A DNA stretch of 64,000 bases from a virus. Made by a program: the position numbers and the translations under genes. Every line of letters starts with the position of its first letter. The first letter of the stretch is position 1. Positions 1-57,888 of this stretch are shown here, one piece after another. Location of the stretch: positions 8,068 to 72,067 of IMG/VR virus record IMGVR_UViG_3300025449_000010. One strand, written 5' to 3'. Below the pieces are notes generated by a model. It did not search any database and was not told the origin of the DNA. It worked only from the letters and a program-made list of their open reading frames with translations.

Positions 1-3000
1 ATTTCATATATCTGAGATGAGGTTAATCCCAGAGATACTGCTGCCATTTCAAATGCATAATTTTCATAGTTAACAGGCATATTGTCAAACTGCTGTTGAC
101 TGCTAACTAACTGCATACCAACATGTAATCCGGCTACAAAAGATTCAGCAAACATATCTTGCATGCTGCCCGTACTCAGTGCCCTATCGTTTTCACCTGT
201 TTTAGCGCTGCTAATTATTATCTTATTTAAAGTTTCGATAAATTTAGTCTGAGCGCCATTATCTCCTGCTAATACGGCTGCTAAATCTATACCTCCTCTG
301 GCTTGATTGAATACTTCAAATAGGGGATTAGAAGTAATATTCAGCCTATTTAACTTATTAATACCGCCTCGAAGAAAGGATTCACTGTCTTGTCGGGATG
401 CCACTCTAATATTTCTCAATATCTCTGGAGCATCATCTATTTCCCCATTAATATCTGTAATATTCTCACCGTACCTATGCAATGCTTCAGATATTTTTTT
501 CGCATATTCCTCAGATCTATCCTTATCGTTATCTTCGCCATAGCCAGTGAATGATTCTATACCAAAAGTCAACAGCATTGCGGCTGCAACTCTCTTAGCA
601 CCCAATGCCGATATACCTTCAGTAAGTTCAGCTACGCCTTCTTCATGTCTAAGTAACTGGGCTCCATGTCCAGGCATATAGGCTTTAAAAGAAGTTATGT
701 TAGCTATGCCATGTATTTGATGAGCCTGTATTCCTCTACTACCCTCTACTGCGCTTCTTAGAATACCAAAGCCATCTCTACTCTTACCTAGCCTGCCTTC
801 TCTCTGACTTCTATTGTATTCTGAAGCCCTATATTCAAATCCTTCTACATCAAACATCTGCACAACAGATTTAAATAGTCCAAAGTTGGCTTCCTGACGA
901 TCTCCAGATACCAGCAACGAAGATCTAATAGAAACATTACGAACTACAGTTGCAGAATTAGAACTATCTCCAGATGTTCCTAGTCCTGTTTTGATTTCTA
1001 TAGAATTGTTGTGATAGGATATACTGACCCTAGCTCCCAGCGTAGCTTCAGTAATACTACTAGATCCAGAGACAGCCTTATCCTTAATACCTTCGAGTAG
1101 TTTAATTAATTTATCACTACCGATACTAGAGCTATTTCTATTTTGATCTGTAGATGCAGCCACGGCACTGGCAGCATTGTCAACAATACCTCTAACCTGC
1201 TGTGCACTGAGGGTATTTACTATATTACTTCCCTTCCTGACTAGGTATGCTTCACCTGTATGTGGATCTATAGAGACAATATCGCCAATTCCCAGGTTCA
1301 AGTTAGCCATACTAAAGTCATTCATCAGACCGTAGCTCTTAACCTTCCTATTCTGAATATTGATATTTCCATATCTAGTGGGTACTACTTCTTCCCCGCT
1401 ATCTGTATTAATTTTCCTGCCAAATCCGGCATTAGCATAGTAAGTGGCATCATGCAGGTACCCGCCAAGCCTGAGTAACATAATAGGTTGATCTTCCCAT
1501 CTGTAACCATCCCTATCAGTTATTATCGGAGCACCAGTCATAGATGTACCGTCAAGCTGATCTCTAGTTACCGCCCATGCTCTGAGTAAATGCTTCTTCT
1601 GTTTATCATCAAATAAATCTCTATATTCATCTCCATTCAGTTTTGCCTTCATATTTTCATAAATTTTCAACTGAGAAGGAGCCATAAGGGAACGAATATC
1701 AGAATCAAACTGATAACCCATTGTCATCATATGTGGAAAGTAACCACCAAATAACAGAGCAGCTGTAGCTTCTCTTTCACTCGTTCGCCCATCATCGCCA
1801 AATAATTCAGTTCTAAAGTTTTTTCTAATATTTTCTATATAGTTATCAGCCCTGCTTCTATCTTTGGCATCAAAGCTATTAAGTAGGTTTATATAATGAG
1901 TATATTCCGCACTGAGTGCAACTTTAGATTTAGTGCCCATAGCATTACGTATCCTCTGAGCAAACTGAAACTGCTTATCTTTCTTACCAGTGCGAGTTAT
2001 TAATAATCTATCTTTATTAACTAATGCTGTCTGATTACTTGCTACGACCGAATTATAACTATTAATGGCTAAATTTTTCTGACTCTCTAAAAATTCATTT
2101 CCTAAATTAGCTACACCAGCGATGTCACTGTAATAGTCACTCTCAGTAAATTGAGAGACATCATTACTATCCCTATCTCCATCTATTATGTATCCAATAC
2201 CAATTGCCTCCAATGCTTCCCAATTGTTCAGTAGGGATAACTCCTGCATACGAGATCCAGTAGCAGTGGAATAGTATTCCATAGTAGTGTTAGTAATAGC
2301 AGAAGCCAGAGCATAAAATCCGGTGCCGCCATACTTTGTAGGATCAAATATCATCGGACTCAAGACAGAGGACATACTGTATAGATTGGAAATCCCTACT
2401 TCAGCTGAGCCTCTACTTCTCTCTAAAAAGGATTTATTAGCATCGTTATATTCGCTACGAGAAATAGTATAGTGAGCCTGAGAATTAGTTCCTAATCCTA
2501 ATTCAGCAAATGGAATTGTATTAATTGAAACATGCTGATTAATCATTTCATTAACATCAACTCTATCGGATAGACCATGAGCCATCAGAGCAAATACATC
2601 AGATAGAACATGCCCCTTAGCTCTCTCTTCATTGGTATTTAATCCTAAAATTTTGCCCAGGGTATTACTGAAAGTGTCTAGATTAACAGAACCCCCAACA
2701 GTCTTAGGATTAAACTGATCTATTGTCAGATTAAATAGTTCTATAATACTATCAAGAGACTCTCTTCTGGTGCTTCCATAGTTAGCATTAAGTCCTCTGG
2801 TCAGTTCTACTGTATTTTTGACAACATCATAGAGATCTGTCATATGAGGATTCCTAGAAGCTCTTAATCTCTCTCTAACTGATATGACATTTGTCCTTGC
2901 TTCTTCAAAAGTTTTGTAATAACCCTTCTCAACCCATTTTCTAGCATATTCATCTACATATCTATCCTCATTTACTCTACTAGGTAAGGCACTATTATCC

Positions 3001-6000
3001 AGAGCCTGAGTCATTTTACCGCCATACTCGGTTAACAGTATAAGAGTATTTCTAGCCTCGAGTAGAAATTTTTTAACATCCTGGTTTTTAATTTCTACTG
3101 CATCTTGAGCTTTTTTACTGGGATCTATAAAATCTGCAATCATATCCAGTGCAGCATCATGATCTTTAAAATTCTTATGAACCCAAAATACTCCAGGATT
3201 CCTACTATCTATATTTGTATCTACTATTTCTTCTCTGTTTTTAATAAGATGCATTTCAGATCCAGTCTTCGATGACTTAACCTGAACACCATAGGTTTTA
3301 CCTTGATAATCATAAATTACATCTATCTTGCTGTTGACATCGCCTTTCGTATTTTCATCTAATTTTCTTACATTACTAATAACCTTACTAAATCTAGGAT
3401 CCTGAAGATATTCTACAAACCTATTGACAGCATTATCGCCTCCACTGGAATTGTAATTTGTACCAGCATCTTCAGAGAGATAACTTTTATGACTAGTTAC
3501 CTCAACTGGCTTACCATATGCTCCAGCTAACCCATTATCGAGAACTTTACCTTTGATAGGGGTGTCATCAGCTCCAATTAGATTTTTATGGAATCCAAGA
3601 GTAGCCTCTAATCTATTTTCTAATTTTCCTCTCTCAATAGGACTAGAAGAACCCATACCCAGATTAGAAAGAAAATTAACTGTCAAGTCTCTGATAAACC
3701 TACTTCTCTCAGAGATGTCATCCATACTATTGACATTATTAATGTACTGAGCAGGACTAGCTATTGATTTCCTATAGTTGTATTCCAACACATTACCTAA
3801 AATAGCCATAACACCGGTCTGAGCACTGTTGAGATACAGTTCATTACCCATACCTGATTTAACAGCACCGAAAGGTGTAGCAAAATTACCAGCATCCTTA
3901 CTAGCTATTACGCTACCTCTATAGACTCTACTCTCGTTAGTTAATACTATGGTGCCTTCTAGATTAGTATTTTCAGTGGCATTAGATCTTGCCTCAGTTG
4001 AAGAATTTAAAATTGTGTAACTTAAATTCTTATTGCCTATTTTGACACTAAAGCTATCTGTACCACCAGACTCCAGAGAACTATTAAGACTAAGCTCTAC
4101 TCCACCTAAATTATTAAAAGTGTAACTTGTCCTATCCTTATTCACCTTCATGTTGTAAGGATTTACAGCAGGACTATACCCCTCTGAACCATATTTTCCA
4201 TATTCATGAAATGCTTTTTCATATTCTGCCAGTCTATCCTCCATAGTGGCTCTATGTCCTAATGCCTCAGATACCCTATTGAAGAGTTCTATATCTGTAA
4301 CACTGCTTCTCTTTAACTGTTCAATTAATATATTAAAAGCAGTTTTAACACTCTCGGTATTTCTAATTTGCTTCAATATATCGCCCTTCATATTCTGAGG
4401 CTGATCTATTGCTCCCATGAAACTGCGTGGAACACTTTCTTCCTGAAAAAACCTATCTCTCTGCTCCTGTCCCCAGCCCAGAGCTTCACTGAAACCTCTA
4501 CTTACGAGATTATGTAGGGACTGACTATGTACCTTAGCAACTTCAGGTAACATATCTCGGTTGCCTAAGACATTGTAGCCAGCATTTGCTGGATTAAATC
4601 TAGAAGCATAGTCTGGATTAAGTGAAACCTCATTGAGCTCTAAAGATAGTTTCTGTTTATACTCCATGTAGGCTTCATGGCTATTAAAATCAGATTCAGT
4701 CAATAACTCCATAGAAAAGGGAGTAAAGTTGCTTGAACCTATATTACTGGCAATAGTAACTATGTTATTGTTATTATCATATTCATACAGGGAATATGCC
4801 TTGGCATGTTGTCTGGGAACTGAGGCTTCCTGCACATTTCCACTAGATATAGCCAGCAGAGTTCTTAGGGTATCTCTAACATGTTGTGTAGAATTTAAAC
4901 CCGTTTCTTCGTATTTGGCTATAGAACCCTGACCAAATATATGTTCATACACTTCAAATCCAGCTCGATGAGAGACACCTCCCTCCATAATGCTAGTTAA
5001 TATATCTTCAGCATATGTACTTGTAGAAGCGTATTTCTGTTTAATCATACGCATGTAACCCAGCAAGTTGCCGTTATATTCCTGATTAACCTTACTATCA
5101 GGAGCAGAATTCATCTTACTTATAAGGGGATTGAGTACCTGTTCAGCAAAATTTCGGATATCTACTGCAACAGTTAATCTTCCCTCAATTAAACTGTTAA
5201 GAGTTTTTTCCTGTAACCTGGCGTATCTCTGAGCCAGGTCATTATCTTTCAGGTATCTCTGCATATTCTGATCGTATAGACCAAATTCACTGGTAAAGGC
5301 GCCGCCTTCTCTATCTCTAAGTAGACTAGTGCCCTGTAATAGTAAAGTCTGGTCTAACATCATAATCATGCGGGCAGACTCATTTACACTTTTTTTAAAT
5401 TTATTATTAGCAGAATCTACTCCATAGGTATAGTCAGATAGATAGCTCAAAGCACTATCTAAATGTTCATAGACTCCTCGCATATCGGTTGTTTCTTTAC
5501 CGCTATCAATATCTTTATCAGCAGCAGTGCGTAGATTATTAAAATTGTCTCTAACCTCATCGCGATCAGCTGAGTAACCAGTAAAATCGCTCTTAGCAAT
5601 CTTACGTCTCTGCGTATAGAGAATATTCTCCATTTCCATAGCACTTCTCTTAGTTTCTGCTAACTTAGATAGTCCAGGATCTCCGTTATACTCATCTTCA
5701 ATATCTTCAATAGTTTTATTTATTTCATGTTCAGTACGAAACCTGGCAATAGATACTAGCTCAAAGTTACTGCCAGATAATTCAAAATCCCTACCTACTG
5801 GCTCAGTTAGGTTCATTGACCCCAGTATAGATACGCCACCGATGAGATCGTCATCTGTAAAATTTTCAGAATCCTCCCTGAATGTCTCATCTACCATCAA
5901 CTTAAGGTGAGAACGATCATTAGCAAATTTAGTAGCAATTCTCTCATGAGCATCGTAATGATTAGATCCCCTTCTCACGAGAGCATGCTTCATTGACTGT

Positions 6001-7076
6001 AATCTGCCAGCAGTAGTTAAGTTTCCACCTAAGATGGCTAAATTAGTATTGTTATCATCATCACTATCGCTAGGAGTAGCTAGAGTCACATGAGCGCTAA
6101 AATTTACATCAGTAGCAGTTCTAGCCGTAAGGTAATCGAGTGCAGTCTCATTCTGTAACTGAAATATATCTATATATAGCCTGGTCTTACCTGCTCTTAT
6201 GCCACCAGCCTGACTAGAAATAATATCTGATTTATTACCCATCATCAGCAGGGCAGTGCCAATTCCAGGACGTATTTCAGTAGGTGAAGGCTCAGTTATA
6301 TTAAGAAGTCTGGCTGCAGAATCTAAACCAACAGGATCCATCATGGTGTTGTTTAAATAACTGTTTGCCCTGGGATCTCCAAGTAGCTGCATACCAGTAT
6401 TGATAGATGCAGCATTGAGATCGGCATAGAGCATCTTAGACTGCGCCTGTATAGCTAAATTACCTTCTTCCCAAAGATCTGTATTCCTATTACCAGATAC
6501 TATACCTGCGCCAAGCCCGCCAGAAGTCCATGGATTAGATACTGCAAAAAATAGAGAACGCGCATCTGCATCAGAGCCAAGACCTAATCTACCCGATACA
6601 ACTTTCAAGATGTCATAGGTCTGAGCTGTCGGTTTAGATAGTCTATTGAGATCTGTATCTATAGCTGTATAGGTAATAGCATTATCAATACTCTGTAGAC
6701 CATCTACACTGCTAATTTCACCAGTACTCAGCTTATCTTCGTAATTTTGAGCCGCCTGAATATACAGATCCTGATTAGGATTATTAGAATCAGATGCAGC
6801 TTCTAATAAATCAGCGTAGGTTTCTATGCCATCTCCCGCCTCAGGAAGGTACTTGTTAATCAGTTTGCCAGAGACTGCGCCAAAAAAGAATCTCTTACCG
6901 CCCGTTAAACCCTGTTCAGCTAAAAAAGCATCAGATAAATACTGATTTTTCGCATTAACCCGCAACAGGTTAAATTTCTGCTGCATATTATAGTTCTGAA
7001 CAAGTAGCAACCCATTGTCACTAGATCCATCCCTATAAAAAGCTCCCGGTTGCCAAGTACTATTACTATCTGACAC
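1..7076 (-). CDS. Giant (>2358 aa, 3'-truncated by window edge) multidomain protein: two PLD-superfamily motifs, PD-(D/E)xK-like nuclease motif, possible RNAP beta-like DPBB
   Basis: GTG at 7076 preceded by TAGGTAAACT; translates MSDSNSTWQPGAFYRDG... Every segment I translated in this frame was open, down to ...YAFEMAAVSLGLTSSQIYE at the edge. An internal stop would have produced a long listed ORF and none is listed. Motifs: HLKLMVDE..GSMN (5909-5811), HAK..IGSSNFT (4808-4722), KIDV..YGVQVKS (~3330-3272). Confidence 0.88.
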   Translation of the reverse strand, partial: MSDSNSTWQPGAFYRDGSSDNGLLLVQNYNMQQKFNLLRVNAKNQYLSDAFLAEQGLTGGKRFFFGAVSGKLINKYLPEAGDGIETYADLLEAASDSNNPNQDLYIQAAQNYEDKLSTGEISSVDGLQSIDNAITYTAIDTDLNRLSKPTAQTYDILKVVSGRLGLGSDADARSLFFAVSNPWTSGGLGAGIVSGNRNTDLWEEGNLAIQAQSKMLYADLNAASINTGMQLLGDPRANSYLNNTMMDPVGLDSAARLLNITEPSPTEIRPGIGTALLMMGNKSDIISSQAGGIRAGKTRLYIDIFQLQNETALDYLTARTATDVNFSAHVTLATPSDSDDDNNTNLAILGGNLTTAGRLQSMKHALVRRGSNHYDAHERIATKFANDRSHLKLMVDETFREDSENFTDDDLIGGVSILGSMNLTEPVGRDFELSGSNFELVSIARFRTEHEINKTIEDIEDEYNGDPGLSKLAETKRSAMEMENILYTQRRKIAKSDFTGYSADRDEVRDNFNNLRTAADKDIDSGKETTDMRGVYEHLDSALSYLSDYTYGVDSANNKFKKSVNESARMIMMLDQTLLLQGTSLLRDREGGAFTSEFGLYDQNMQRYLKDNDLAQRYARLQEKTLNSLIEGRLTVAVDIRNFAEQVLNPLISKMNSAPDSKVNQEYNGNLLGYMRMIKQKYASTSTYAEDILTSIMEGGVSHRAGFEVYEHIFGQGSIAKYEETGLNSTQHVRDTLRTLLAISSGNVQEASVPRQHAKAYSLYEYDNNNNIVTIASNIGSSNFTPFSMELLTESDFNSHEAYMEYKQKLSLELNEVSLNPDYASRFNPANAGYNVLGNRDMLPEVAKVHSQSLHNLVSRGFSEALGWGQEQRDRFFQEESVPRSFMGAIDQPQNMKGDILKQIRNTESVKTAFNILIEQLKRSSVTDIELFNRVSEALGHRATMEDRLAEYEKAFHEYGKYGSEGYSPAVNPYNMKVNKDRTSYTFNNLGGVELSLNSSLESGGTDSFSVKIGNKNLSYTILNSSTEARSNATENTNLEGTIVLTNESRVYRGSVIASKDAGNFATPFGAVKSGMGNELYLNSAQTGVMAILGNVLEYNYRKSIASPAQYINNVNSMDDISERSRFIRDLTVNFLSNLGMGSSSPIERGKLENRLEATLGFHKNLIGADDTPIKGKVLDNGLAGAYGKPVEVTSHKSYLSEDAGTNYNSSGGDNAVNRFVEYLQDPRFSKVISNVRKLDENTKGDVNSKIDVIYDYQGKTYGVQVKSSKTGSEMHLIKNREEIVDTNIDSRNPGVFWVHKNFKDHDAALDMIADFIDPSKKAQDAVEIKNQDVKKFLLEARNTLILLTEYGGKMTQALDNSALPSRVNEDRYVDEYARKWVEKGYYKTFEEARTNVISVRERLRASRNPHMTDLYDVVKNTVELTRGLNANYGSTRRESLDSIIELFNLTIDQFNPKTVGGSVNLDTFSNTLGKILGLNTNEERAKGHVLSDVFALMAHGLSDRVDVNEMINQHVSINTIPFAELGLGTNSQAHYTISRSEYNDANKSFLERSRGSAEVGISNLYSMSSVLSPMIFDPTKYGGTGFYALASAITNTTMEYYSTATGSRMQELSLLNNWEALEAIGIGYIIDGDRDSNDVSQFTESDYYSDIAGVANLGNEFLESQKNLAINSYNSVVASNQTALVNKDRLLITRTGKKDKQFQFAQRIRNAMGTKSKVALSAEYTHYINLLNSFDAKDRSRADNYIENIRKNFRTELFGDDGRTSEREATAALLFGGYFPHMMTMGYQFDSDIRSLMAPSQLKIYENMKAKLNGDEYRDLFDDKQKKHLLRAWAVTRDQLDGTSMTGAPIITDRDGYRWEDQPIMLLRLGGYLHDATYYANAGFGRKINTDSGEEVVPTRYGNINIQNRKVKSYGLMNDFSMANLNLGIGDIVSIDPHTGEAYLVRKGSNIVNTLSAQQVRGIVDNAASAVAASTDQNRNSSSIGSDKLIKLLEGIKDKAVSGSSSITEATLGARVSISYHNNSIEIKTGLGTSGDSSNSATVVRNVSIRSSLLVSGDRQEANFGLFKSVVQMFDVEGFEYRASEYNRSQREGRLGKSRDGFGILRSAVEGSRGIQAHQIHGIANITSFKAYMPGHGAQLLRHEEGVAELTEGISALGAKRVAAAMLLTFGIESFTGYGEDNDKDRSEEYAKKISEALHRYGENITDINGEIDDAPEILRNIRVASRQDSESFLRGGINKLNRLNITSNPLFEVFNQARGGIDLAAVLAGDNGAQTKFIETLNKIIISSAKTGENDRALSTGSMQDMFAESFVAGLHVGMQLVSSQQQFDNMPVNYENYAFEMAAVSLGLTSSQIYE

Positions 7077-8088: not shown

Positions 8089-9597
8089 ATGGACGAATCT
8101 CCCCAAGAGCAGAACAAGGTCTCGCACCTAGTTACCCAACCACCTGTAGTAACCTCACCTACCTATAGGAGGTTCCCACCTCGGTTAGGTCAATTCGGAC
8201 GCTCCATGTCCTATACCTCTATTGGAGAGAGTTTCAGAGCCACCACCAAGCCCTCCCAGCAACAGCTGGCTGTCTGGGATGAGGCACGCCAGAGAGAACC
8301 CACCATACAGGCTGGGTTCAATATCATCACCAGGAACCTGCTGGCCACCATCGGAGACTATGTGCATCCCAACAGGGACATACAGAACTTCGTCAGGGCC
8401 AATATAGCCCAGGGACTGCATAGATGGATAGAGGCGGCACTGATATCCAGCATGTGGAGTGGGTTTTCAGTCGGCGAGGTGATCTGGCAGTACCGCGATG
8501 GGCCCAACGGCAAGCAGGTCTGGATCAATGAGATCATGCCGTACCATCCCATCCAGATCTTCTTCATCGTCAATGACTTCGGACAACTCACCCATGGCGA
8601 GAGGGTCACCTACTCCAGCTACAAGTCTGGTATCTGGGTACCCCGTCCTGCCAGCCAGTATACCCGGAAGATCAACACAGACACACATGGCATCCATGCC
8701 AGACTGCCACGCAGCAAGGCCTTCTACACCAAGATAGGACATGACCAGGGTAACCCCTACGGTCACAGTCCCCTCTTCCCTATCATGCGTTACCATCTCT
8801 TCAAGGAGGTCTTCATGGATCTCATGAGTAATGCCCTGGATAGGTATTCCATGCCCCTACTCTACGTCAAGGTACCCAACCAGACCACGCAGGAGGCCAC
8901 CACTGATGCTGATGGCAGCACCCGCATGCTGACACTGCAGGAGGTAGTGGCACGTGAGATACAGGAGATAGAGCATGACAGCTTCCTGGTATTCACCCAG
9001 ACCGATGCCCGCAATAATCCCATCGAGATAGGTGCACTGACCACAGGTAATAACTACGGGGAGGCATTCAACCATGCCATCGACCTCTGCGATAAGAACA
9101 TGATGCTGGGTCTCAATATACCCAATCTCCTGTTCCATGAGCAGGGCAGACAGCTGGGTGGGGGCGGCGCCAGTGCCATCCAGTGGGAGGTATTCAACCA
9201 CTTCATCGGCTCGCTATATGATGTGACTGTGGGTGCATTCATAGACCAGGTGGTACGTCAGCTGATAGCCTACAACTTCGATGTCAACACCGTACCTGAT
9301 GCTGGTGAACTCGGCTACATGCAGCGTAAGCCCATCAGACCCGTGGATCAGAAGACCACTGCTGATGTCTATTCAATACTGACCCAGATAGGTGCTGTCA
9401 ATACCACCAATGAGACCGACTTCGCTCATATCAGGGCAGTCATGGGTCTACCAGACCGTGATCACCAGGGCTACGATGAGCCTCACCTGCCAGGCATGAC
9501 TCCAGCGGTAGGGGCGGCGCCGTCCCAGACCCGCACCAGGAAGAAGGCAACCACCAGGGATGGGCAGGAGCCAACCGACAAGTCAGTCCAGAAATAG
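8089..9597 (+). CDS. Portal protein (Mu gp29/DUF935-like)
   Basis: 502 aa; 'WSGFSVGEVIW' and 'GNPYGHSPL...FK..M...LDRYSMP' patterns; upstream of protease and capsid genes. Confidence 0.85.
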   Translation: MDESPQEQNKVSHLVTQPPVVTSPTYRRFPPRLGQFGRSMSYTSIGESFRATTKPSQQQLAVWDEARQREPTIQAGFNIITRNLLATIGDYVHPNRDIQNFVRANIAQGLHRWIEAALISSMWSGFSVGEVIWQYRDGPNGKQVWINEIMPYHPIQIFFIVNDFGQLTHGERVTYSSYKSGIWVPRPASQYTRKINTDTHGIHARLPRSKAFYTKIGHDQGNPYGHSPLFPIMRYHLFKEVFMDLMSNALDRYSMPLLYVKVPNQTTQEATTDADGSTRMLTLQEVVAREIQEIEHDSFLVFTQTDARNNPIEIGALTTGNNYGEAFNHAIDLCDKNMMLGLNIPNLLFHEQGRQLGGGGASAIQWEVFNHFIGSLYDVTVGAFIDQVVRQLIAYNFDVNTVPDAGELGYMQRKPIRPVDQKTTADVYSILTQIGAVNTTNETDFAHIRAVMGLPDRDHQGYDEPHLPGMTPAVGAAPSQTRTRKKATTRDGQEPTDKSVQK

Positions 9598-9608
9598 ACT
9601 GGTGCCGC

Positions 9609-46276: not shown

Positions 46277-46296
46277 GATTCAGTTCCCTACCATAT

Positions 46297-46580: not shown

Positions 46581-46608
46581 TTAATCAATTAAAAGATTCT
46601 AATTAACT

Positions 46609-47040
46609 TGACGACACATAATTTGTCACTGTGCATAGATTATTGACTTCCATCTACCTACAACGTCGAAAATTATTAATCAATTAAAAGATTTTAATTA
46701 ACTCGAAGACAATAATTTGTCACGACGACACATAATTTGGCATGACGACATTAATTTGTCACTGGCGACATATAATTTGTCACTGTACACGACACATAAT
46801 TTGTCACTGTGCATAGATTATTGACTTCCATCTACCTACAACGTCGAAAATTATTAATCAATTAAGAAATTTTAATTAACTCGACGACAATAATTTGTCA
46901 CGACGACACATAATTTGGCATGACGACATTAATTTGTCACTGGCGACATATAATTTGTCACTGTACATGACGACACATAATTTGTCACTGTGCATAGATT
47001 ATTAACTTCCATCTACCCACAGCGTCGAAAATTATTGATT
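46609..47040. repeat. ~180-bp tandem repeat (about 2.4 copies) built from ~20-bp GACGACACATAATTTGTCAC units plus one iteron
   Basis: The unit restarts at 46613, 46791 and 46972. Confidence 0.85.
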
Positions 47041-47042
47041 AC

Positions 47043-48567: not shown

Positions 48568-48651
48568 ACAAGTAATGTAATAATTAATTTATTCTTATAT
48601 TATACGTGGATAGCGGGTTAACATATAGAAATACAGATCACATGGATAATC

Positions 48652-49572: not shown

Positions 49573-49858
49573 ATTACAACAACTAACTGGTCTGGCGGCA
49601 CCGCTACTGGGTATATTGGCATCGTTTTTAACCTGTGTACCCATTAATGCGCTCAGTAATGCTCAATTAAACTATCTGGCGGCGCTGCCTCTAACTAATG
49701 CCTATATTAATCCGCCAGATGCCAGTCTATTTAAATGGACATCACCGCAATTTTCTACAGGTGTAACCACTTCCCCCGCAATAAGTGGTTACCTACTGGG
49801 ACAAGCTAGTTACAATCTAGCTGCCTGGATAGAGTATGTAGTATCGGTGGGGGGTTAG
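49463..49858 (+). CDS. Hypothetical protein (start uncertain)
   Basis: ORF ends 2 nt before the next gene; its 5' part overlaps the partner gene. Confidence 0.45.
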   Translation: MYLNLRLKFLRHPVKAELIPLVIAQWQINGAGNDLNRLQQLTGLAAPLLGILASFLTCVPINALSNAQLNYLAALPLTNAYINPPDASLFKWTSPQFSTGVTTSPAISGYLLGQASYNLAAWIEYVVSVGG

Positions 49859-49860: not shown

Positions 49861-52032
49861 ATGGCAGATGCCACTAATTCTCAGGTTGCGCCTGGTGCTG
49901 CTTTAAATATAATTTGGAGTTCAGTTCTAACTGGTGTACCTATGTATGGTACAAGTTCTGGCGGTAGCTACACTTCAACAAATCAAACACTAACTTTAAA
50001 TACATCAACCACTCCACAAACGGTAAATCCACCAACCAGTGTAGTTAAGAATCAACCAGGCATTACTTTTAAATATGGAACTAATACGTGGTATATGGTT
50101 CTTCAACCTGCAATGGATCCTGTACTGCCAATGCAGGGATCTAGGGGCGCTCCCGGTGCCGCCGCAGGTGGAATAGTAGTTAAGGCTAAACCACTAATAG
50201 CCCGTCATGTGATACCAGGCTTTGGACCAATAATTCAGCATCTAGGTGTCTATAGCACTATAGTTTCCTTCGTAGGAGCATTCGTGGGTTATGAAGGAAC
50301 TAACCAGAATAATATATCAGAATTCTATACCTATCCATCCAGTGTTAATTGGCAATCTAATTCTAATTTAAGCTCAGCTATAGTAGTAGATAGTTATGGA
50401 GCTTTTACTACATTCTGGAATGGAGTAGTTAAAAGCGGTTATCAACTTCAAGTAACTATCGCAACTAACACTATACTGAATGGCAGCAGTTTTAAAGAAA
50501 ATAGTCTAAGAGATTCAACTGGACAACCTAACTTTATTGGATACATTTCTAAAATGGAAGCTATGTATGTCAGAGATGACTTAACATGGTACAACATAGA
50601 CATAGAAGTAGTTGATCAACCTAATGCTATTCCCGTGCAGTTGCCTGCCTGTAAAAACAGTAGCATTAGTAGTAATGATGTAAACAACGTTTCTAATAGT
50701 ATTTGTTCTACTGATCCTAGCTTAGGAGAAAAAGCTCTAAGATGCTATTTAGATCAATGTAAAGCAGTAAAATTAGCAACATTAGCTTCCGATTTAGTAG
50801 TAGATGGAGATCCAAAATCACCATATCAAAAGGCAGTATATAGTGTTTTTTTAATACTAGATACGAGTAAACGAACATTGCCTAAACCTAATAGCGGTAG
50901 ATTTGGCGGCTCTATTGTTAATTCTATATGGTTAAGAAATGTTGGAGATGGTTCAATATACACTAGCGATTCTATTGATATTGCTTATATAAAATCCTTA
51001 TTTGTTAATGTATTAGATGATGATATGACTAATTTAATTAACTATAGAAACAATGAAAATAGAATTATATTAACATATGAAAATAGTTCAATAAAAATTA
51101 ACTTTGACTTTACATATTTAAATCAACAAACAAGTGGTATTAATTCAAGCGGTAATCTTACTATTTCAAATAGTTATGAAATGACTACAAGTATTTTTAA
51201 TAATAATTTTATTAATATAAACATTGACAATAATTTTTACAATTTTACTAGTTATTTAACATATACTAGTTATAATTATTTAAAACTGGTTAGTTCAGAC
51301 GCTCAACTACTTGGATTATCTTCTTGTGTCATAAATAACTCAGACATAAAATTGTTAAATCAAGGCTTACCTGTAGACTCAAAAACAAGTGCAAACCCGA
51401 CTACTACAGCTTTAAACCCAAATACATGTCCTGATGCATTAAAAAACAGCGGCTACTGTACAGCTGTATTTGCAGGTTCATATACATTTTATGTAGCTGG
51501 TTCTTGCAGTGCCACAGGACGTATATATGATTCATCTGGAAATATAGTATCTTTAAGAGGCAATTTAAGTCCTACAAGTAATGTAGATCCTTTAAATTAT
51601 TCTAAAAATCAAGCTGAAAATTTCTCATCAGCAATTCTTGGCGGTTTTGTTTCTGCTTTAGGTAGAGCAGTATCTGGTTCTTCTAATGAATTTTTAATAG
51701 CTAATTATTTTCAAATTAAAAGTGACAATAATGATCTTAATAGTTATCCTGGTCTTCAAGTCTTAGCACTTTTTGATGCAAAATCCTCTGATCCAGGAAA
51801 AATACAAGCTCATCCATATATTGTAGTTACAGGAAATAACCCTGGTAAATTTTACGATGGCTATGGTATAGGTGCGACAACTATCTACAATGTTTTAGTC
51901 TATACCGACGGTAAAGGTCAGTATTATAAGTATAAATCAGATAGCAATAATAATATTACTCTAGACACAGGTCAGGCTTATCAATTTAAAACAGATCCTA
52001 ACTCTGGACAAACAGGATTGTATCAAATTTAA
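49861..52032 (+). CDS. Probable tail-tube initiator/baseplate protein with AT-rich C-terminal extension
   Basis: IARH.IPG.GP.IQHLG......F.G resembles P2 gpU/Mu N-terminal-type domains. Confidence 0.5.
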   Translation: MADATNSQVAPGAALNIIWSSVLTGVPMYGTSSGGSYTSTNQTLTLNTSTTPQTVNPPTSVVKNQPGITFKYGTNTWYMVLQPAMDPVLPMQGSRGAPGAAAGGIVVKAKPLIARHVIPGFGPIIQHLGVYSTIVSFVGAFVGYEGTNQNNISEFYTYPSSVNWQSNSNLSSAIVVDSYGAFTTFWNGVVKSGYQLQVTIATNTILNGSSFKENSLRDSTGQPNFIGYISKMEAMYVRDDLTWYNIDIEVVDQPNAIPVQLPACKNSSISSNDVNNVSNSICSTDPSLGEKALRCYLDQCKAVKLATLASDLVVDGDPKSPYQKAVYSVFLILDTSKRTLPKPNSGRFGGSIVNSIWLRNVGDGSIYTSDSIDIAYIKSLFVNVLDDDMTNLINYRNNENRIILTYENSSIKINFDFTYLNQQTSGINSSGNLTISNSYEMTTSIFNNNFININIDNNFYNFTSYLTYTSYNYLKLVSSDAQLLGLSSCVINNSDIKLLNQGLPVDSKTSANPTTTALNPNTCPDALKNSGYCTAVFAGSYTFYVAGSCSATGRIYDSSGNIVSLRGNLSPTSNVDPLNYSKNQAENFSSAILGGFVSALGRAVSGSSNEFLIANYFQIKSDNNDLNSYPGLQVLALFDAKSSDPGKIQAHPYIVVTGNNPGKFYDGYGIGATTIYNVLVYTDGKGQYYKYKSDSNNNITLDTGQAYQFKTDPNSGQTGLYQI

Positions 52033-52037: not shown

Positions 52038-52370
52038 ATGCGTACTGACTATCCCGTATCTGAAACTACCCTATTAGCTCTCAACTATCCACCCAGTGAG
52101 CCTATACATGCTCTGATGTTATCTAATGGCTATCTGTGGGCAGATACTACCATACCTGCAGTGAGTATTATCTATATCCTCAATAATGGAACACCTGTCA
52201 GCACATCTATAACTGGAATTCAGTTTACATCCACACAGTCTATTACATCGGGCGGCACCGTGACTACACAACAGCTTGTCCTACAACCACAGGGCATAAC
52301 GCTGTCTATTAGTAATATAACGTACCTGCTCCTGCCCAATGGTCTCAGCTACAGCTCAGCAGCTTCTTAG
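52038..52370 (+). CDS. Hypothetical protein
   Basis: 110-aa ORF within the operon. Confidence 0.5.
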   Translation: MRTDYPVSETTLLALNYPPSEPIHALMLSNGYLWADTTIPAVSIIYILNNGTPVSTSITGIQFTSTQSITSGGTVTTQQLVLQPQGITLSISNITYLLLPNGLSYSSAAS

Positions 52371-53358
52371 CCAAGTACAATCCCTAGTTACACCCCTATC
52401 TGCATTAACAGTGGATAGTAATGCCAGTGCCCAGGCGCAGGTAACTCAGAATCAAGACTATCCAAATCGTCCATATAATCCACCCCTATCCTTCCTCTAC
52501 ACCGATACACTGTCAACATTACTGGCTGAAATCAGTAATAACAACTACATATATGCTGGTCAGATAACCAGACCAGGGACACTGTTAATGCCTGCCCGTA
52601 CCGCCTACGAGCCGCATCATGTATTTGTCAGTAGAACTGGATCCTATGCCTACAGGTTCATCTACATACCCCTGAGATTGTTGGCCAACGGCCCTCAGAT
52701 ACTCTCAATTCCAACATGGACATATGACGGTTCCAGCATCTCTACAGGTACATCCTACAATACTGGCACTATGTTTGCTTCAGATGCCAGTAGCTGGCCG
52801 GTTACACATGGTATCTATTGTCAGGACTACTATCACCCGCTGGTATTCGGTCTACATTTCACTGGCAATGCTGTAGATATTGCAGGCGGCACTCCGCTCT
52901 GGGAATATCAGGACAGACTAGGCTGGCTAGGTGACAGGGGTACCCTCTATCTGGATATATATCAACCGCTTGGTATGCGTTTCCCCCTGGGTATACCGAT
53001 AGGCGGTCAACTGCAGCCAGATCCATCCTACAACAGCGGCGAGCTGTACCTACCCAGTAGCGGCTCATATGATTTAATTGGCTACTATAGGGGATACATG
53101 ACCAATGATACCTATAGTCAGACCACCTACTATCTCTACCAGTATCCCGGTGGAGTGTTTCTGAGCAGTGCCGTCCCAATTCCCATACAGATAAATACGG
53201 TATGGAATCAGTCTCACACCATATGGAATACATCTCAGTGGCAGTGGGGTAATAACACCTATAACCCCCTGTCCAGCGTAATCAGCAGTCTGAGTGGCAG
53301 TGAGGCATCTGCTATTACCAGACAATCTGTAATTCAAACATGGACGGAGGTGCGCTGA
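52339..53358 (+). CDS. Hypothetical (probable structural) protein
   Basis: 339-aa ORF within the operon. Confidence 0.55.
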   Translation: MVSATAQQLLSQVQSLVTPLSALTVDSNASAQAQVTQNQDYPNRPYNPPLSFLYTDTLSTLLAEISNNNYIYAGQITRPGTLLMPARTAYEPHHVFVSRTGSYAYRFIYIPLRLLANGPQILSIPTWTYDGSSISTGTSYNTGTMFASDASSWPVTHGIYCQDYYHPLVFGLHFTGNAVDIAGGTPLWEYQDRLGWLGDRGTLYLDIYQPLGMRFPLGIPIGGQLQPDPSYNSGELYLPSSGSYDLIGYYRGYMTNDTYSQTTYYLYQYPGGVFLSSAVPIPIQINTVWNQSHTIWNTSQWQWGNNTYNPLSSVISSLSGSEASAITRQSVIQTWTEVR

Positions 53359-54062
53359 TGGGAATACTATCCAGTAATTATCAACTGATAGAGATGTATG
53401 TAGGTGGCAGCACTGCGCTACAGAACAAGGTACCAGACAGCGTCATCATGGAGCTGACCAGGAGACCGCAGGAACAGACCGTTATAGTTAATGCAGCTGC
53501 CTATGTCTTCAGTCTGACCTCCCCCTACGGCTACGATCCACATATACTCTCAGGCAATATCTATGCTGTCTATAATCAGGCAGGGAGAATGCTCTATCAG
53601 GTGGCTGGTCATAACGGCATCTGGGGACGTAATGCACTGGACGCTCAGTTGGTATTCGGTAGCCAGCCCTGGGAATACTATTTCGTCAATGCAGGAGGGG
53701 GTATTGTATATGGAATACTTCGAGGAGAAGATCCCATACCCTTGGGCAGCAGTGGGGACACATCAACCTCTCTCAGTAGTGGCAACGGCTGCACCCTGAT
53801 ACTCAGCGGCAGTGGCACAGTCTACGTTCTAGCTAAGGGTACACGTACCAGCAGCATCTCAGCTGCCATCGTCATGGCACAGGGTAAATCTACTGTCATT
53901 ACCGGTGCCGCCCCAGTATCAGTGATCATCTCCAGTGATAGCTGGATATATCTACAGAATGCATCAGGTACGCCCAGTACTGCGATTCTGCCTGGTGATA
54001 AGGTAGCCAGTGGGCTATATTTCACCAGAGCCAGCTCGCCAGATACTGCCATTACCGTTTAA
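53358..54062 (+). CDS. Hypothetical (probable structural) protein
   Basis: TGATG coupling at 53356-53360 supports a start at 53358 rather than 53340. Confidence 0.55.
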   Translation: MGILSSNYQLIEMYVGGSTALQNKVPDSVIMELTRRPQEQTVIVNAAAYVFSLTSPYGYDPHILSGNIYAVYNQAGRMLYQVAGHNGIWGRNALDAQLVFGSQPWEYYFVNAGGGIVYGILRGEDPIPLGSSGDTSTSLSSGNGCTLILSGSGTVYVLAKGTRTSSISAAIVMAQGKSTVITGAAPVSVIISSDSWIYLQNASGTPSTAILPGDKVASGLYFTRASSPDTAITV

Positions 54063-54065: not shown

Positions 54066-56507
54066 ATGCAGAAGCAGATAGATATCTCCTCAGGCTTCAT
54101 GTCACAGTTACTGAAGCTATATCAGAGCGGCAGTCCTCTCAGTATTGTAGAATTCGTTGAGCAGGTGCTACTGAATGGACAGGTCAATCTATTCCTGGGT
54201 CAGAAGATAGTCCTCAAGAGTTTCTACGGTGAAGAACTCAGCCCAGAGGAGCAGGATACCCTGATTCGCTGGAGGGAGAATGAACAGCGCACCACATGGA
54301 TACCGGGTAGACAATACAGCAATCTGATTCTGGAGAGTGGTAGACGCTGTGTGGTGGGGAGTACCATGCTGGCAACTCCCAGCGGACTGCAGCGCATAGA
54401 TTCCCTGGCATCTGAGACAGGAGCACATATAGAGACTGTATCTGCCAGGGGCGGCACCGCTGAAATGGTCTACTACTATAATCAGGGCAGACAGAAGACC
54501 TACAGACTGGTCACCTCATCTGGACGTACCCTACAGGGTACGCCTAATCACCCAGTCATGGTTCAGAGAGATGGCATGTACCTATGGGTACCGCTGAGTG
54601 ATGTAATTACCAGTGATCAGATATTGATATCCCGCAGCCACTGCCTGGGCAACGGTGCCGCCTACACCTACTATGAGAATCAACTATGGTCAGACAGTAT
54701 CTGGAACTACAGCCATGAGAACATCTGCCGTCATCTCAGTCGTCAGATAACAGCCAGTCAGAGTGGTGACATCAACAATATCAGAAGCCATAGCTACGAA
54801 TATATACGCAGACATCAGATACTGGCAACTGCTGTGGGAATACCCTCCAGCATCATAACCTCCAGGAAGGGGCATCCCCTGACAGACGGTACCTGGATAC
54901 TCCGCATGGATCCGAAGTGGCGGGCACGGGTACTGAATAAGCGAGGCAGCGGACTGGATGAATGGGTAGAACAGGTATCCAGTGTCACCTATGCAGGCTA
55001 CGAGAATGTCTACGATATCCATGTACCTGGCGATCATGCCTTCTGGGGAGATGGTTTCATCAATCACAACAGCGGTAAGAGCATGCTGGTCAGTGCAGTA
55101 GTTCTCTATGAGTTCTATAATCTGATTACACTGAACTCACCTGCCAAGCACTACGGTCTGGTACCCTCAGATCCCATACATATATTCGTAATTGCCCAGT
55201 CAGCAGAACAGGTCAAGGAAACCCTCTTCGCTAAGATAATAGGCTATGCCAGTGAGAGTATGCTCTTCCAGTCCCTGGCTAAGAGCGGCGAGATAGAGAT
55301 GCTGGCAACTGAAATTCGCTGTCCCGGGAAGAATGTGGCTATCTCAGCTAAGCATAGCCGCTCACAGTCCCTGGTCGGCTATAACCTCAAGCTCTTCGTA
55401 CTGGATGAGGCATCACGGTTCGAGACCAATGAACTGGGTGTCAATACAGCAGATACCCTCTTCGATAACGTGGGTAAGGCAGTCAGCACCTTCGGTAAAC
55501 ATGGCAAGAGAGTCATGATCTCCAGTGCCTGGTGTGAGGGCGACCCCATCCAGCGTGCCTATGACCACTGTCACAGGGATCCCTACAGTCTGGGAATGAG
55601 ACTGACCACATGGCATCTCAATCACAGCCCCAATGTAGCCAGAGATAGTCCACAGATAGTGTCAGACTACCTGAAGAACGAACAACTAGCCCGACTGGAA
55701 TATGAGGGCATCCGCCCCAGTGCCAGCGGTGGTATGTTCACCACGGATATGATTGACAGCTGCACCACTGGACATTCCATGGTAGATACTGCAGCCACTG
55801 ACCTGGATGTCAGGGGACCTGAGGAGACCAGGAGGTACGTGGGAATTAATATACTGAGATGTGAACCCAGTCAGGGACCTGGCTATGGGCACATAGACTA
55901 TGGACTCAAGCGAGACAACTGCGCCTTCGCCTTCGCAGCACCTGGAGAGAAGGATGGCAGCTGGACTATCAACATAGAGGGACTGATCCTCTGGCAGCCC
56001 CGCATGACTGATGGGGGTATCAGGAGTGTCTCCTTCACCAATGTCGAGGACACCCTGATCCAGATATCGGTGCGGCGCAATATACGCTACCTGTCCTTCG
56101 ACCAGTGGAACAGTGAGGCCACAATACAGAGACTGCATGAGCAGGGGATAGTGACTGAGCTGCTGGGCGTGTCCCGTCCCAAGCAGATGCTCTACTACAC
56201 TCTCCTGCGCCAGCTACTACTGGAGGGACGTATACAGTTCCCCATGGACAGCATCTGGATGCCAGACCTGAAGGCAGAATTACATGGACTGGTAGTGCAG
56301 GCTAACGGTAAGATAATACATCCCAGTGCCAATAAGGATCTGGCAGATGCGGTGGCATGCGCTGTCTGGAACTGCCATGAGAAGATGGCAATTGCAGGTC
56401 TGATGCGCACTGGTCAGGGCAATGCACCCTTCAATAGACATAGTTCACACAGTGCCACCAGCAATATGGCAAGACTGAAGAGACTGAAGAAAACTAGGAG
56501 CATATAG
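54066..56507 (+). CDS. Terminase large subunit with intein
   Basis: Spliced Walker A GRR|SGKS; Walker B FVLDE; motif III ISSA; RNase H-like HID.G...D, FDQWNS, KD.ADA. Confidence 0.92.
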   Translation: MQKQIDISSGFMSQLLKLYQSGSPLSIVEFVEQVLLNGQVNLFLGQKIVLKSFYGEELSPEEQDTLIRWRENEQRTTWIPGRQYSNLILESGRRCVVGSTMLATPSGLQRIDSLASETGAHIETVSARGGTAEMVYYYNQGRQKTYRLVTSSGRTLQGTPNHPVMVQRDGMYLWVPLSDVITSDQILISRSHCLGNGAAYTYYENQLWSDSIWNYSHENICRHLSRQITASQSGDINNIRSHSYEYIRRHQILATAVGIPSSIITSRKGHPLTDGTWILRMDPKWRARVLNKRGSGLDEWVEQVSSVTYAGYENVYDIHVPGDHAFWGDGFINHNSGKSMLVSAVVLYEFYNLITLNSPAKHYGLVPSDPIHIFVIAQSAEQVKETLFAKIIGYASESMLFQSLAKSGEIEMLATEIRCPGKNVAISAKHSRSQSLVGYNLKLFVLDEASRFETNELGVNTADTLFDNVGKAVSTFGKHGKRVMISSAWCEGDPIQRAYDHCHRDPYSLGMRLTTWHLNHSPNVARDSPQIVSDYLKNEQLARLEYEGIRPSASGGMFTTDMIDSCTTGHSMVDTAATDLDVRGPEETRRYVGINILRCEPSQGPGYGHIDYGLKRDNCAFAFAAPGEKDGSWTINIEGLILWQPRMTDGGIRSVSFTNVEDTLIQISVRRNIRYLSFDQWNSEATIQRLHEQGIVTELLGVSRPKQMLYYTLLRQLLLEGRIQFPMDSIWMPDLKAELHGLVVQANGKIIHPSANKDLADAVACAVWNCHEKMAIAGLMRTGQGNAPFNRHSSHSATSNMARLKRLKKTRSI
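54348..55070 (+). mobile_element. Intein (241 aa) with degenerate homing-endonuclease remnant
   Basis: Starts CVVGST, block B GTPNHP, ends VYDIHV...HAF..DGFINHN followed by Ser. Confidence 0.92.
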
Positions 56508-56508
56508 G

Positions 56509-57888
56509 ATGTCCGGCACCCCAGGTACCCCGATTGATTGGCAAGAACCCTACCTGAATCCGCTATATCAGGATGGCGGTAGCTACGGTGATCCAGTGTA
56601 TGTAGACACCACTGAACCTGGCGTAGACCCAGCCCTGCTACAGGGACGCGAGAGTGGCATATACATAGATGACATAGCTGACGTAGACTACATTCAGATC
56701 TATATACCTCAGAACGACAGGCACGTGGGGCGAGCTATCCATCAGGAACTCCATGTGACCGGACAGAACTATGTCTATGTCCAGGTGCCGCCCACTGTGG
56801 GCTATGGTGTTAACTCCTGCTACATAGTCGAATACTATAAATACATAGCTCCAGTGCCGCTCAACTACACCATGTCTGGCACCAACTCAGTCACCATCAA
56901 CGGTACCCCCATCACCAGACAACTGAGTCGCTCAATACAGCTGCCAGGTAGATCCAGAAAGGAGCTACTCTACAGTCAGTACTGGTTGGTACCCACCTTC
57001 AAGGGCTATAGGTATCTACGACACAGGGACACCATACTGGAACAACGTCTGCCAGACCGTAGACGCAATATAGAGCTGATCATGAATGCCAGCACCTTCA
57101 CCCAGGTCAATGGATCAGATCCCCTGACCAGCGATATTCAGCTCATAGTCAGTGTCATGGCAACTCCAATCACAGCCAGTGCCACCCCAATTATCAGCAA
57201 CGGCATCATCACTGGACTCAGTATAGTGGGAGGTGGCTCTAACTACACCACTGCACCTACCATCACCATCACCAGTGCCACAGGTACGGGAGCCCGTGCA
57301 ACTGCTATTATCACCAGGGGTATAGTAACTGGCTATACAGGACTCGTGGGCGGCACCGGGTACCTGGCAGGCAATACGACTGTCAGCATAGCGCCGCCCA
57401 CCTCCCAGGCAACTGCCACAGTCACAGTCACAGGCGGTGTCATCACAGCCATCACAGTGACCAATGGAGGTGCAGGATACTCCAGTGCCTATCCTCCCAA
57501 CATCAGTTTCACCAGCAGCACCGGAACAGGAGCCAGTGCCACCCTGACTGTGGCTAATGGCAGGATAACAGGCTACACCAACCTGATAGGTGGATACGGC
57601 TATGCAACCGTAACAGCCACCATAGACCCCCCAGGTGTCAATACATACTATGCCCAGACAACAGACTGGGAACGCACTGCAGACGGCATACAGTGGCTGA
57701 CCACGGCGCCGCCCACTCAATATTTGATCATGTACCGTCCATGCTACTACAAGGAAGAAGTAACCTACATTCCTAACTCAACTGAGTTGACAGTAGTCAA
57801 CCACAGACAGCTAATGCCAGAACAACAGCTCTTCAACGGGTTACTCTATAATCCAGCCCTGACATATCCATATCCCTGGATTGGTTAA
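56509..57888 (+). CDS. Virion structural protein with (ATA..GG.IT.I.V..GG.GY..P) repeats
   Basis: About four beta repeats of the type seen in large myophage baseplate/neck proteins (57170-57630). Confidence 0.65.
   Translation: MSGTPGTPIDWQEPYLNPLYQDGGSYGDPVYVDTTEPGVDPALLQGRESGIYIDDIADVDYIQIYIPQNDRHVGRAIHQELHVTGQNYVYVQVPPTVGYGVNSCYIVEYYKYIAPVPLNYTMSGTNSVTINGTPITRQLSRSIQLPGRSRKELLYSQYWLVPTFKGYRYLRHRDTILEQRLPDRRRNIELIMNASTFTQVNGSDPLTSDIQLIVSVMATPITASATPIISNGIITGLSIVGGGSNYTTAPTITITSATGTGARATAIITRGIVTGYTGLVGGTGYLAGNTTVSIAPPTSQATATVTVTGGVITAITVTNGGAGYSSAYPPNISFTSSTGTGASATLTVANGRITGYTNLIGGYGYATVTATIDPPGVNTYYAQTTDWERTADGIQWLTTAPPTQYLIMYRPCYYKEEVTYIPNSTELTVVNHRQLMPEQQLFNGLLYNPALTYPYPWIG

Follow-up and report, generated by a model that had tools for sequence, protein, structure and literature searches.

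A highly iterated, asymmetric DNA word, GGCGGCRC, in a probable freshwater cyanophage with a plasmid replicon

Few DNA signals that extend over whole bacterial genomes are known; examples are highly iterated palindrome 1 (HIP1), whose role is debated, Chi and uptake sequences. Uptake sequences, that is, the uptake signal sequences (USS) of Pasteurellaceae and the DNA uptake sequences (DUS) of Neisseriaceae, are asymmetric 8-10-mers with a strong core and weaker flanks that occur on both strands of competent bacterial chromosomes about once per kb, often as inverted pairs at gene ends, and that sit in tolerant frames and bend peptide usage. HIP1 is GCGATCGC and is reported at 300-2700 per Mb, and alternate HIPs, which are strain-specific, at 1000-2000 per Mb (Elhai 2015, PMC4390886); the alternates include GGCGCC in Calothrix PCC 7103, GCsGC in Cyanothece PCC 7822 and rCCGGy in Oscillatoria PCC 10802, and hot-spring Synechococcus has GGGATCCC (PMC4390886; Xu et al. 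2018, PMC5861425). A recent proposal casts HIP1 as a signal for DNA uptake (PMC13756078). Chi is given as GCTGGTGG in E. coli and as AGCGG in B. subtilis, with recC and recBCD reported mainly from marine picocyanobacteria and most non-marine cyanobacteria reported to lack recC (PMC5101192). Here we describe GGCGGCRC, with its weaker CG tail, as a highly iterated DNA word of the HIP and uptake-sequence class, present about once per kb on both strands of a viral DNA. The window that we analyzed is a stretch of 64,000 nucleotides, bases 8068-72067 of a single contig of 72,067 bases (IMG/VR virus record IMGVR_UViG_3300025449_000010), and all positions below refer to it.

An exact scan confirmed that the iterated word is real. 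GGCGGCRC occurs 57 times in the window, 24 times on the plus and 33 times on the minus strand, with R being A in 40 and G in 17 of the 57 copies; the number of loci is 54, as each of three sites has the 12-mer palindrome GGCGGCGCCGCC and so is counted once per strand. Dinucleotide-preserving shuffles of the window left 0.69 copies (standard deviation 0.84; maximum 3 in 100 shuffles). The original prediction, made from the letters alone, had reported at least 53 copies where only a few were expected, in both orientations and different frames and with one site at a gene junction, and the scan bears this out: all 28 of the positions it had written out are among the 57. The whole contig holds 63 copies (24 in one orientation and 39 in the other), that is, 0.87 per kb, compared to about 0.9 per kb in the window. 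By order-1 and order-3 Markov models, GGCGGCAC (44 copies against 0.65 or 2.33 expected) and GGCGGCGC (19 against 0.23 or 1.19) head the contig's list of 8-mers, and the 10-mer GGCGGCACCG occurs 16 times against 0.02 or 0.10. The GGCGGC hexamer is found 77 times against 9.8 expected, and 63 of the 77 go on with RC. Copies of the two orientations are intermixed along the whole window without a switch, and their spacing within 8-46 kb is slightly more even than random (coefficient of variation [CV] 0.76 compared to 0.96; about 5% of 5000 random placements were as even).

Our data also show that the signal acts at the DNA level and not on proteins. For frame and codon tests we used 39 mechanically called open reading frames (ORFs), which contain 56 of the copies; the junction copy at 9602 is the only one outside a single ORF. 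Synonymous shuffling within each gene, which keeps both the protein and the codon usage of the gene, gave 6.6±2.4 copies (maximum 15 in 1000 shuffles), and permutation of whole codons gave 2.8±1.7, so that the excess is about 80-fold over dinucleotide shuffles and about 8-fold over codon shuffles. Four of the six frames are used by the genic copies, namely sense frame 0 (G-G-T/A, 20 copies), sense frame 2 (x-A-A-x, 5 copies) and two antisense frames (G/S-A-A, 24 copies; V/A-P-P, 7 copies), with no copy in the remaining two, where Arg, Cys or His would be required. The two outcomes named beforehand as telling against a DNA-level signal, loss of the excess under codon-preserving shuffles and confinement to one frame, were thus not observed. 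GGC is only the third of the four Gly codons in use (367 of 1522), and GCG, CCG and ACG are little used. Where a gene has at least 40% GC, the word fills 18 of 28 G-G-T/A sites and 7 of 12 V/A-P-P sites, together with 23 of 88 G/S-A-A-type, 5 of 76 A-A-x and 0 of 11 Arg-frame sites. Compared to shuffled proteins, word-compatible peptides are themselves in excess (GG followed by T or A, 33 against 19.1±4.1; G, S, C or R followed by AA, 51 against 27.3±4.9), and two of the three portal copies lie where the closest homologue (76% identical) has different residues. The force behind the word therefore extends to amino-acid choice. Uptake sequences likewise affect amino-acid choice.

Alignment of the 57 copies defines the shape of the word. 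GGCGGC-R-C is invariant; position +8 is C in 40 and position +9 is G in 37 of the 57 copies, both being part of the word, and the preceding base is G in 29. Positions +10 and +11 are at background, with C in 18 and 14 copies, respectively, six of each contributed by the three perfect palindromes. The extension toward a palindrome that the original prediction described therefore holds for +8 and +9 and goes no further, and a degenerate 12-mer palindrome can be ruled out, with these flanks at background and the perfect form at just 3 of 54 loci. Because nearly all CGGYRCCG cores carry the GG extension (25 of 26), whereas only 28 of 63 octamers carry the CCG extension (strand counts), the octamer is the unit: an asymmetric word that is not its own reverse complement, with a weaker 3' CG tail. 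A (GGC)n microsatellite is likewise ruled out, as GGCGGCGG occurs just 3-4 times. One-base neighbors of the word are scarce in the contig, with at most nine copies each, and are mainly transitions; against expectations that are inflated by the word's own codons, transition neighbors are at or above expectation (20 compared to 15.9) and transversion neighbors are few (4 compared to ∼22). The original prediction had further seen overlapping GCSGC and GGYRCC sites in the extended word and had suggested a search for the matching C5-methyltransferases. Outside the octamer, compared to synonymous shuffles with the word codons fixed, GCSGC (40 against 58.8), GGCRCC-type words (14 against 26.5), GGCGCC (0 against 5.2) and GGCGGC (7 against 16.9) are all depleted; the word is therefore not the sum of two simple methylase sites, and a composite of GCSGC with GGYRCC or GGCGCC is ruled out.

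How does this word compare to the described systems? Like the HIPs, it is a GC-rich word of about eight bases that recurs about once per kb inside genes in several frames, and its density (875 per Mb) and its tens-fold excess, which coding does not explain, fall within what is expected of HIPs, which number hundreds to thousands per Mb. Again as in genomes with alternate HIPs, HIP1 itself is low or absent where the phage word stands, the contig having no GCGATCGC and a single CGATCG in 72 kb, and the sub-words are not enriched alone, just as CGATCG is not outside HIP1. The phage word also contains GCGGC and, in 17 of 57 copies, GGCGC. It differs from HIPs in that (i) it is not a palindrome; (ii) it was found on phage DNA and, at comparable density, in none of the 698 cyanobacterial chromosomes that we searched; and (iii) no cognate methyltransferase is seen in the 72-kb contig, which is about 45% of the genome. 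The HIP- or uptake-like character first suggested for it thus stands as regards the DNA-level signal, the density and the seat in genes, but not as regards palindromy or presence in the searched cyanobacterial chromosomes. GGCGGCRC is not among the words described in the HIP and repair articles (PMC4390886, PMC5861425, PMC13756078, PMC5101192; supplementary oligomer tables aside), nor did we find a description of it, or of a phage-borne overrepresented GGCGGC, in the literature, where HIP1 and cyanophage papers were represented by their titles and abstracts.

With uptake sequences the phage word shares an asymmetric core, weaker flanks, both orientations, a density of about one per kb and a preference for tolerant frames; it differs in placing only a single copy outside ORFs and in having no known host or receptor. 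With Chi it shares the form of a G-rich asymmetric oligomer, and copies this dense on both strands might shield the random termini left by headful packaging. Unlike Chi, the word has no orientation bias and no known RecBCD or AddAB partner, and Chi excess is far below that of the phage word. A strict Chi is disfavored because there is no polarity, and a polar signal of the Chi or KOPS (FtsK-orienting polar sequence) type is ruled out on the same ground.

The copies are distributed over the window as follows. Sense copies of GGCGGCAC read as G-G-T lie on the plus strand in the tail sheath gene (20466-20473), in ORFs 25115-27034 (25850-25857), 30719-34723 (31148-31155, 31469-31476 and 32114-32121), 36503-38251 (37037-37044), 39769-43845 (41287-41294), 43845-46091 (44067-44074 and 44754-44761), 52038-52370 (52251-52258) and 52339-53358 (52885-52892), in the terminase large subunit gene (54450-54457) and in ORF 56509-57888 (57349-57356). 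GGCGGCGC read as G-G-A is found on the same strand in the portal gene (9163-9170, where the closest homologue has T-N-A), the tail sheath gene (19431-19438) and ORF 25115-27034 (25337-25344). The left giant ORF (3-7076, minus strand) has one sense copy of each on the minus strand, GGCGGCAC at 2323-2330 (G-G-T) and GGCGGCGC at 5299-5306 (G-G-A). Sense frame 2 is used on the plus strand by GGCGGCAC at 8433-8440 (portal gene, E-A-A-L) and 49594-49601 (ORF 49442-49858, L-A-A-P), and by GGCGGCGC at 9513-9520 (portal gene, G-A-A-P) and 49678-49685 (ORF 49442-49858, L-A-A-L). The junction copy, GGCGGCAC on the minus strand at 9602-9609, follows the portal stop. The three perfect palindromes at 29074-29085, 29400-29411 and 42355-42366 each consist of two overlapping copies (29074 plus and 29078 minus; 29400 plus and 29404 minus; 42355 plus and 42359 minus).

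The antisense copies, all on the minus strand, are most often read as G-A-A. These are GGCGGCAC at 12194-12201 and GGCGGCGC at 13220-13227 (both in ORF 11830-13305), GGCGGCAC at 18910-18917 (18483-19232), 23179-23186 (23070-25118), 27203-27210 (amidase gene) and 27960-27967 (M23 peptidase gene), GGCGGCGC at 28425-28432 (M23 peptidase gene), and GGCGGCAC at 36463-36470 (35466-36506), 44950-44957 and 45916-45923 (43845-46091), 50156-50163 (49861-52032), 53905-53912 (53340-54062) and 54655-54662 (terminase gene). S-A-A is the reading of GGCGGCAC at 27338-27345 (amidase gene), 31203-31210 and 33357-33364 (30719-34723), 34868-34875 (34669-35112), 39337-39344 (39207-39767), and 40718-40725 and 40811-40818 (39769-43845), with R-A-A at 17698-17705 (16458-18473) and C-A-A at 26016-26023 (25115-27034), both again GGCGGCAC. 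Finally, GGCGGCAC is read as V-P-P at 16313-16320 (15740-16483), 29994-30001 (29607-30722) and 56785-56792 (56509-57888), and GGCGGCGC as A-P-P at 38359-38366 (38248-39210), 57391-57398 and 57706-57713 (both in 56509-57888).

The replicon (45924-49593) and everything past 57713, that is, the right giant ORF, hold no copy, and the left giant ORF (within 1-7076) holds two, in agreement with the gaps noted at the outset. However, the gap in AT-rich modules is mainly a lack of opportunity, because compatible peptide sites are few there (39 in AT-rich genes compared to 215 in GC-rich genes). AT-rich genes realize 3 copies where about 7.9 would be expected at the class rates of the GC-rich genes, which leaves at best a mild deficit beyond opportunity. 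The suggestion that absence from AT-rich modules marks recently acquired DNA is thus weak, being mostly accounted for by the scarcity of compatible peptides. The background itself is poor in similar words: CpG stands at 0.47 of expectation in the contig and is avoided across codon junctions (1015 compared to 1617 in synonymous shuffles with word codons fixed), and GC-rich genes contain far fewer CCGG (44, with 132 expected) and GGCC (46, with 128 expected). Against this background, from which other GC-rich and CpG-containing words have been cleared, the octamer stands out. Two further words, CCWGG and CTGCAG, are overrepresented in the GC-rich genes of the window.

The contig is linear, is estimated at 45% completeness and encodes a Mu-type portal, a capsid-E-like protein, a tail sheath, an amidase, an M23 peptidase and two giant ORFs. 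Its large terminase subunit (54066-56507) is interrupted by an intein (Pfam Intein_splicing, residues 142-335), and the terminases of cultured relatives align from residue 337 onward only. Within this myovirus structural region lies a replicon composed of trfA (47043-47816, minus strand), parA (47806-48567, minus strand), a partner ORF (48652-49572, plus strand) and nine TAATTTGTCAC iterons in two near-identical sets (46620-46989) just outside trfA; an iteron origin with TrfA and ParA in such a place is that of a phage-plasmid. The best plasmid matches of TrfA are proteobacterial (36-40% identity) and do not identify the host. Members of the ParA-partner family, at 26-38% identity, turn up in 42 of the 381 genomes searched from one large cyanobacterial order. 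The partner itself, the 48652 protein, had been put forward as a possible reader but is a poor candidate, because the par module in which it sits is free of any copy of the word. The nearest cultured relatives are Microcoleus phage My-WqHQDG and the Microcystis Ma-LMM01 group, to which the portal is 37-38% and the terminase 45-49% identical, and the phage DNA is found in freshwater and lake metagenome runs, two of which (X8 and X9) contain contigs of 72-73 kb; in X9 its word depth is about 348. A complete genome of about 160 kb is expected. Because its portal and terminase kin are Microcystis and Microcoleus phages, the contig is probably a freshwater cyanophage by kinship, a myovirus carrying a plasmid replicon. 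We found no megablast match among phages, no close relative among viral contigs by portal alone, and in the contig no tRNA gene, no RecBCD- or AddAB-type gene and, among the ORFs scanned (9 lay outside the scan), no methyltransferase. A ferritin-like ORF (Dps-type fold; 10012-10647, minus strand) lies antisense between the portal and prohead-protease genes, with a homologue at the same place in a related provirus (G001).

Population variants gave a limited view of how the word is kept. The single metagenome contig found with overlap (9.8 kb, 98.3% identical) retains all 14 copies; its 180 differences all lie outside the 104 motif bases, which is not significant against the 1.9 expected there. 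It also has one extra copy: at 34023-34030 (minus strand) the window has the one-off GGCGGTAC, which a single C/T change makes into GGCGGCAC in the variant. In a comparison with four metagenome runs, contigs of two runs differ by about 1-2%, and among the 40 of 499 differing places that were listed none is inside a copy. Taken together, these data are compatible with conservation, although not significantly so.

We next consider the words carried by related phages. A portal alignment search returned 39 viral-contig loci and 3 loci in genome bins, the latter without any prophage in a named cyanobacterium, and each locus was scanned for k-mers. HIP1 is strongly enriched in some of these relatives, L002 having 9 sites in 15.7 kb, L009 having 5 in 21 kb and L032-34 having 7-9 in 21 kb, with nothing comparable in most of the others. 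The Ma-LMM01-like loci (L025-L030 and L037) and the Microcoleus phage locus (L001) have 0 HIP1, whereas HIP1 is reported in Microcystis at 312 per Mb (Elhai, PMC4390886); not every phage of the family thus takes on the word of its host. Among 43 loci (L001-L043), a strong GGCGGC excess is seen only in this contig and in L006 (13 against 0.2 expected); five further whole records have no or a weak GGCGGC excess, and the Microcoleus phage has 5 octamers in 163 kb. In several relatives of about 30% GC (among loci L010-L020), CpG is purged to the extreme of 0.04-0.11 of expectation.

The record that contains L006 (G001; 70,971 bases, 31% GC, classed as provirus) is syntenic with this contig across the structural module and has 33 GGCGGC against 0.64 expected, with 3 for the reversed control; within its ORFs the count is 24, compared to 1.5±1.2 under synonymous shuffles. 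The two words thus share the GGCGGC core, a DNA-level excess, both strands, several frames and the phage family. They differ in the 3' extension, which in G001 is T/A and not RC-CG, in base composition and in portal clade: in the portal tree this contig groups with three metagenome proteins, and L006 falls in another clade, with moderate support, together with the HIP1-bearing L009 and L002. Moreover, 6 of the 33 copies in G001 form three hairpin stems at gene ends, as GGCGGC/GCCGCC pairs seven bases apart at 46386/46399, 64580/64593 and 65742/65755 of that record. The G001 portal was found in none of 401 genomes of one order.

The original prediction had suggested that the word could fingerprint the host. 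We searched cyanobacterial genomes centered on the bin that holds L002 (G002) and on G127. The sets comprised 401 genomes of the phylum, searched for GGCGGCRCCG, and 90 genomes of the order of G002 and 301 of the order of G127, searched for GGCGGCACCG; in total these are 698 distinct genomes (401 + 86 new + 211 new), a sample of the phylum and not the whole. The genomes are cyanobacterial by their HIP1 counts, on which ground G002, with 7,949 HIP1 sites in 7.2 Mb, is itself a cyanobacterium. The phage carries 222 of the A-variant 10-mer and 389 of the R form per Mb, and none of the 698 genomes approaches this density. The best genomes for the A variant (G562 and G575) reach 25 per Mb, with an 8-mer count just 2x the reversed control. 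G127 has 207 per Mb of the R form, owing to another word, CGGCGCCG/CGGCGCTG: in a 118-kb sample (L044-L051, 54% GC) these have strand counts of 282 and 134, about 1.2 per kb. The A-variant count of G127 is below the control, and the genome is poor in HIP1 (74 compared to 174 for the control). Being HIP1-poor and rich in this word, G127 belongs with the alternate-HIP genomes of the GGCGCC kind; its extension is unlike that quoted for Calothrix PCC 7103. CGGCGCCG is the palindromic core of the R=G variant of the phage word and overlaps 8 of the 10 positions of that form. In 381 genomes of the order of G127, GGCGGC is never more than about 1.7-fold over the reversed control. In about ten of them, including G528, G582, G605, G618, G631, G670, G721, G740 and G763, the hexamer is four- to seventeen-fold below that control, which suggests restriction-type avoidance of words containing GCSGC.

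The best reading of these data, and one that we hold tentatively, is an alternate-HIP-like imprint from an unsampled cyanobacterial host. The phage-plasmid would have resided and replicated in a host that carries its own iterated word in place of HIP1, and the word would have been imposed there by a sequence-specific system that creates or keeps it, e.g., by methyltransferase-linked biased repair, as Elhai proposed for HIPs, or alternatively through an uptake or recognition function like that proposed for HIP1. Several observations favor such an imprint: (i) the excess is one of DNA, with synonymous opportunities near saturation, its density is like that of HIPs, and HIP1 itself is missing; (ii) phages of the same family (L002, L009 and L032-34) carry HIP1; (iii) L006 groups with the HIP1-bearing L009 and L002, so that the word changes among near relatives; (iv) the cyanobacterium G127 makes a closely related word; (v) TrfA, ParA and nine iterons allow long residence as a plasmid, and L006/G001 is classed as provirus; and (vi) the portal, the terminase and the ParA-partner family show cyanobacterial affinity. 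Other observations weigh against it. Every HIP described so far is palindromic, and this word is not; no genome near the phage density turned up among the 698, nor a GGCGGC-rich one among the 381; the 72-kb contig, about 45% of the genome, has no match to the PF00145 C5-methyltransferase domain; and the GGCGGC core recurs in the 31%-GC G001 of another clade, so that two unsampled hosts with similar words would be needed. The failed host search is only moderate evidence, because the phylum was sampled and alternate HIPs are strain-specific (Elhai, PMC4390886).

A phage-borne reader comes close to the host imprint and is quite possible, although we rank it second. Here the missing half of the genome would code for a sequence-specific DNA machine that reads words with the GGCGGC core on both strands, and selection would keep their spacing of about 1 kb. 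The machine might be a primase or loader initiating synthesis at the word, or a protein by which phage and host DNA are distinguished; alternatively, the word might be a Chi-like signal that restrains a helicase-nuclease acting from the random termini left by headful packaging. A phage-encoded machine would fit the lack of a word-rich genome among 698 (10-mer) or 381 (hexamer) cyanobacterial genomes, as well as the occurrence of the core in 2 of about 40 lineages of the family, in separate clades of very different base composition. Near-saturated opportunities, protein sequences bent toward the word and the slightly even spacing point the same way, as do, without significance, the 14 copies unchanged in the variant with 180 differences. 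On the other hand, a core function would be conserved and most relatives lack the word, with L006 alone among the 43 loci sharing a strong excess with this contig; the reader would therefore be an accessory module. Furthermore, no candidate reader was found in the 72 kb, the lack of orientation bias (24 plus, 33 minus) speaks against the Chi variety, and HIP1, a word that certainly belongs to hosts, is what the near relatives of L006 carry. Iterated GCSGC/GTGCCGCC words in other large phages are an unconfirmed lead and lend no support to a phage-borne reader. In a 14-mer palindrome scan of viral contigs (80 loci listed of 118 stretches), mainly GC-rich contigs were among the matches listed; the only 45%-GC one among them, L121 (G406, 54.6-65 kb), was rejected as a genome-wide word, as its 11 copies of GGCGGCGC(C) are confined to the last 12 kb at spacings of about 0.6-3 kb, mostly about 1 kb, and form a local repeat instead.

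In its broadest form, which we consider possible but less likely than not, the idea of a reader would have an accessory DNA machine move among large phages of unrelated hosts (cyanobacteria, gut and rumen) and read GGCGGC(R), each carrier writing the word about once per kb on both strands, at the cost of its own proteins and independently of host composition. Less likely than either the host imprint or a phage-borne reader, and improbable in our view, is a neutral by-product without any reader, in which a context bias of replication or repair (by a phage or host polymerase, mismatch repair or very-short-patch-like repair) turns near-matches into the word. The site that is polymorphic by a single C/T change and the predominance of transitions among surviving one-off neighbors fit this view, and alternate HIPs have themselves been considered as perhaps epiphenomena of biased repair (Elhai, PMC4390886). 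However, very-short-patch-like repair would deplete T-for-C neighbors, which the transition and transversion counts given above, with their inflated expectations, do not bear out, and the amino-acid usage bent toward the word also argues against it. To our knowledge, a repair bias specific to eight asymmetric bases has no precedent. A coding artefact, with Gly-Gly-Thr and Ala-Ala peptides in favored codons or a (GGC)n triplet repeat producing the excess, can be dismissed with near certainty. Although two frames, those reading GGC-GGC-RCN or GCC-GCC, account for 45 of the 56 genic copies and compatible peptides are somewhat enriched, the idea fails, given that shuffles keeping protein and codon usage refute it and that the Gly and NCG codon usage, the use of both strands and four frames and the rarity of GGCGGCGG are all against it.

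The phage word is as dense and as sharply defined as HIP1, but it is asymmetric, lies on a phage-plasmid and has no counterpart in about 700 cyanobacterial genomes. If the host imprint holds, an unknown host would carry a new, non-palindromic HIP, and temperate cyanophages would take on such words, which would be useful for host prediction. If, on the other hand, the word is phage-borne, it would point to an undescribed sequence-specific machine shared by large phages.

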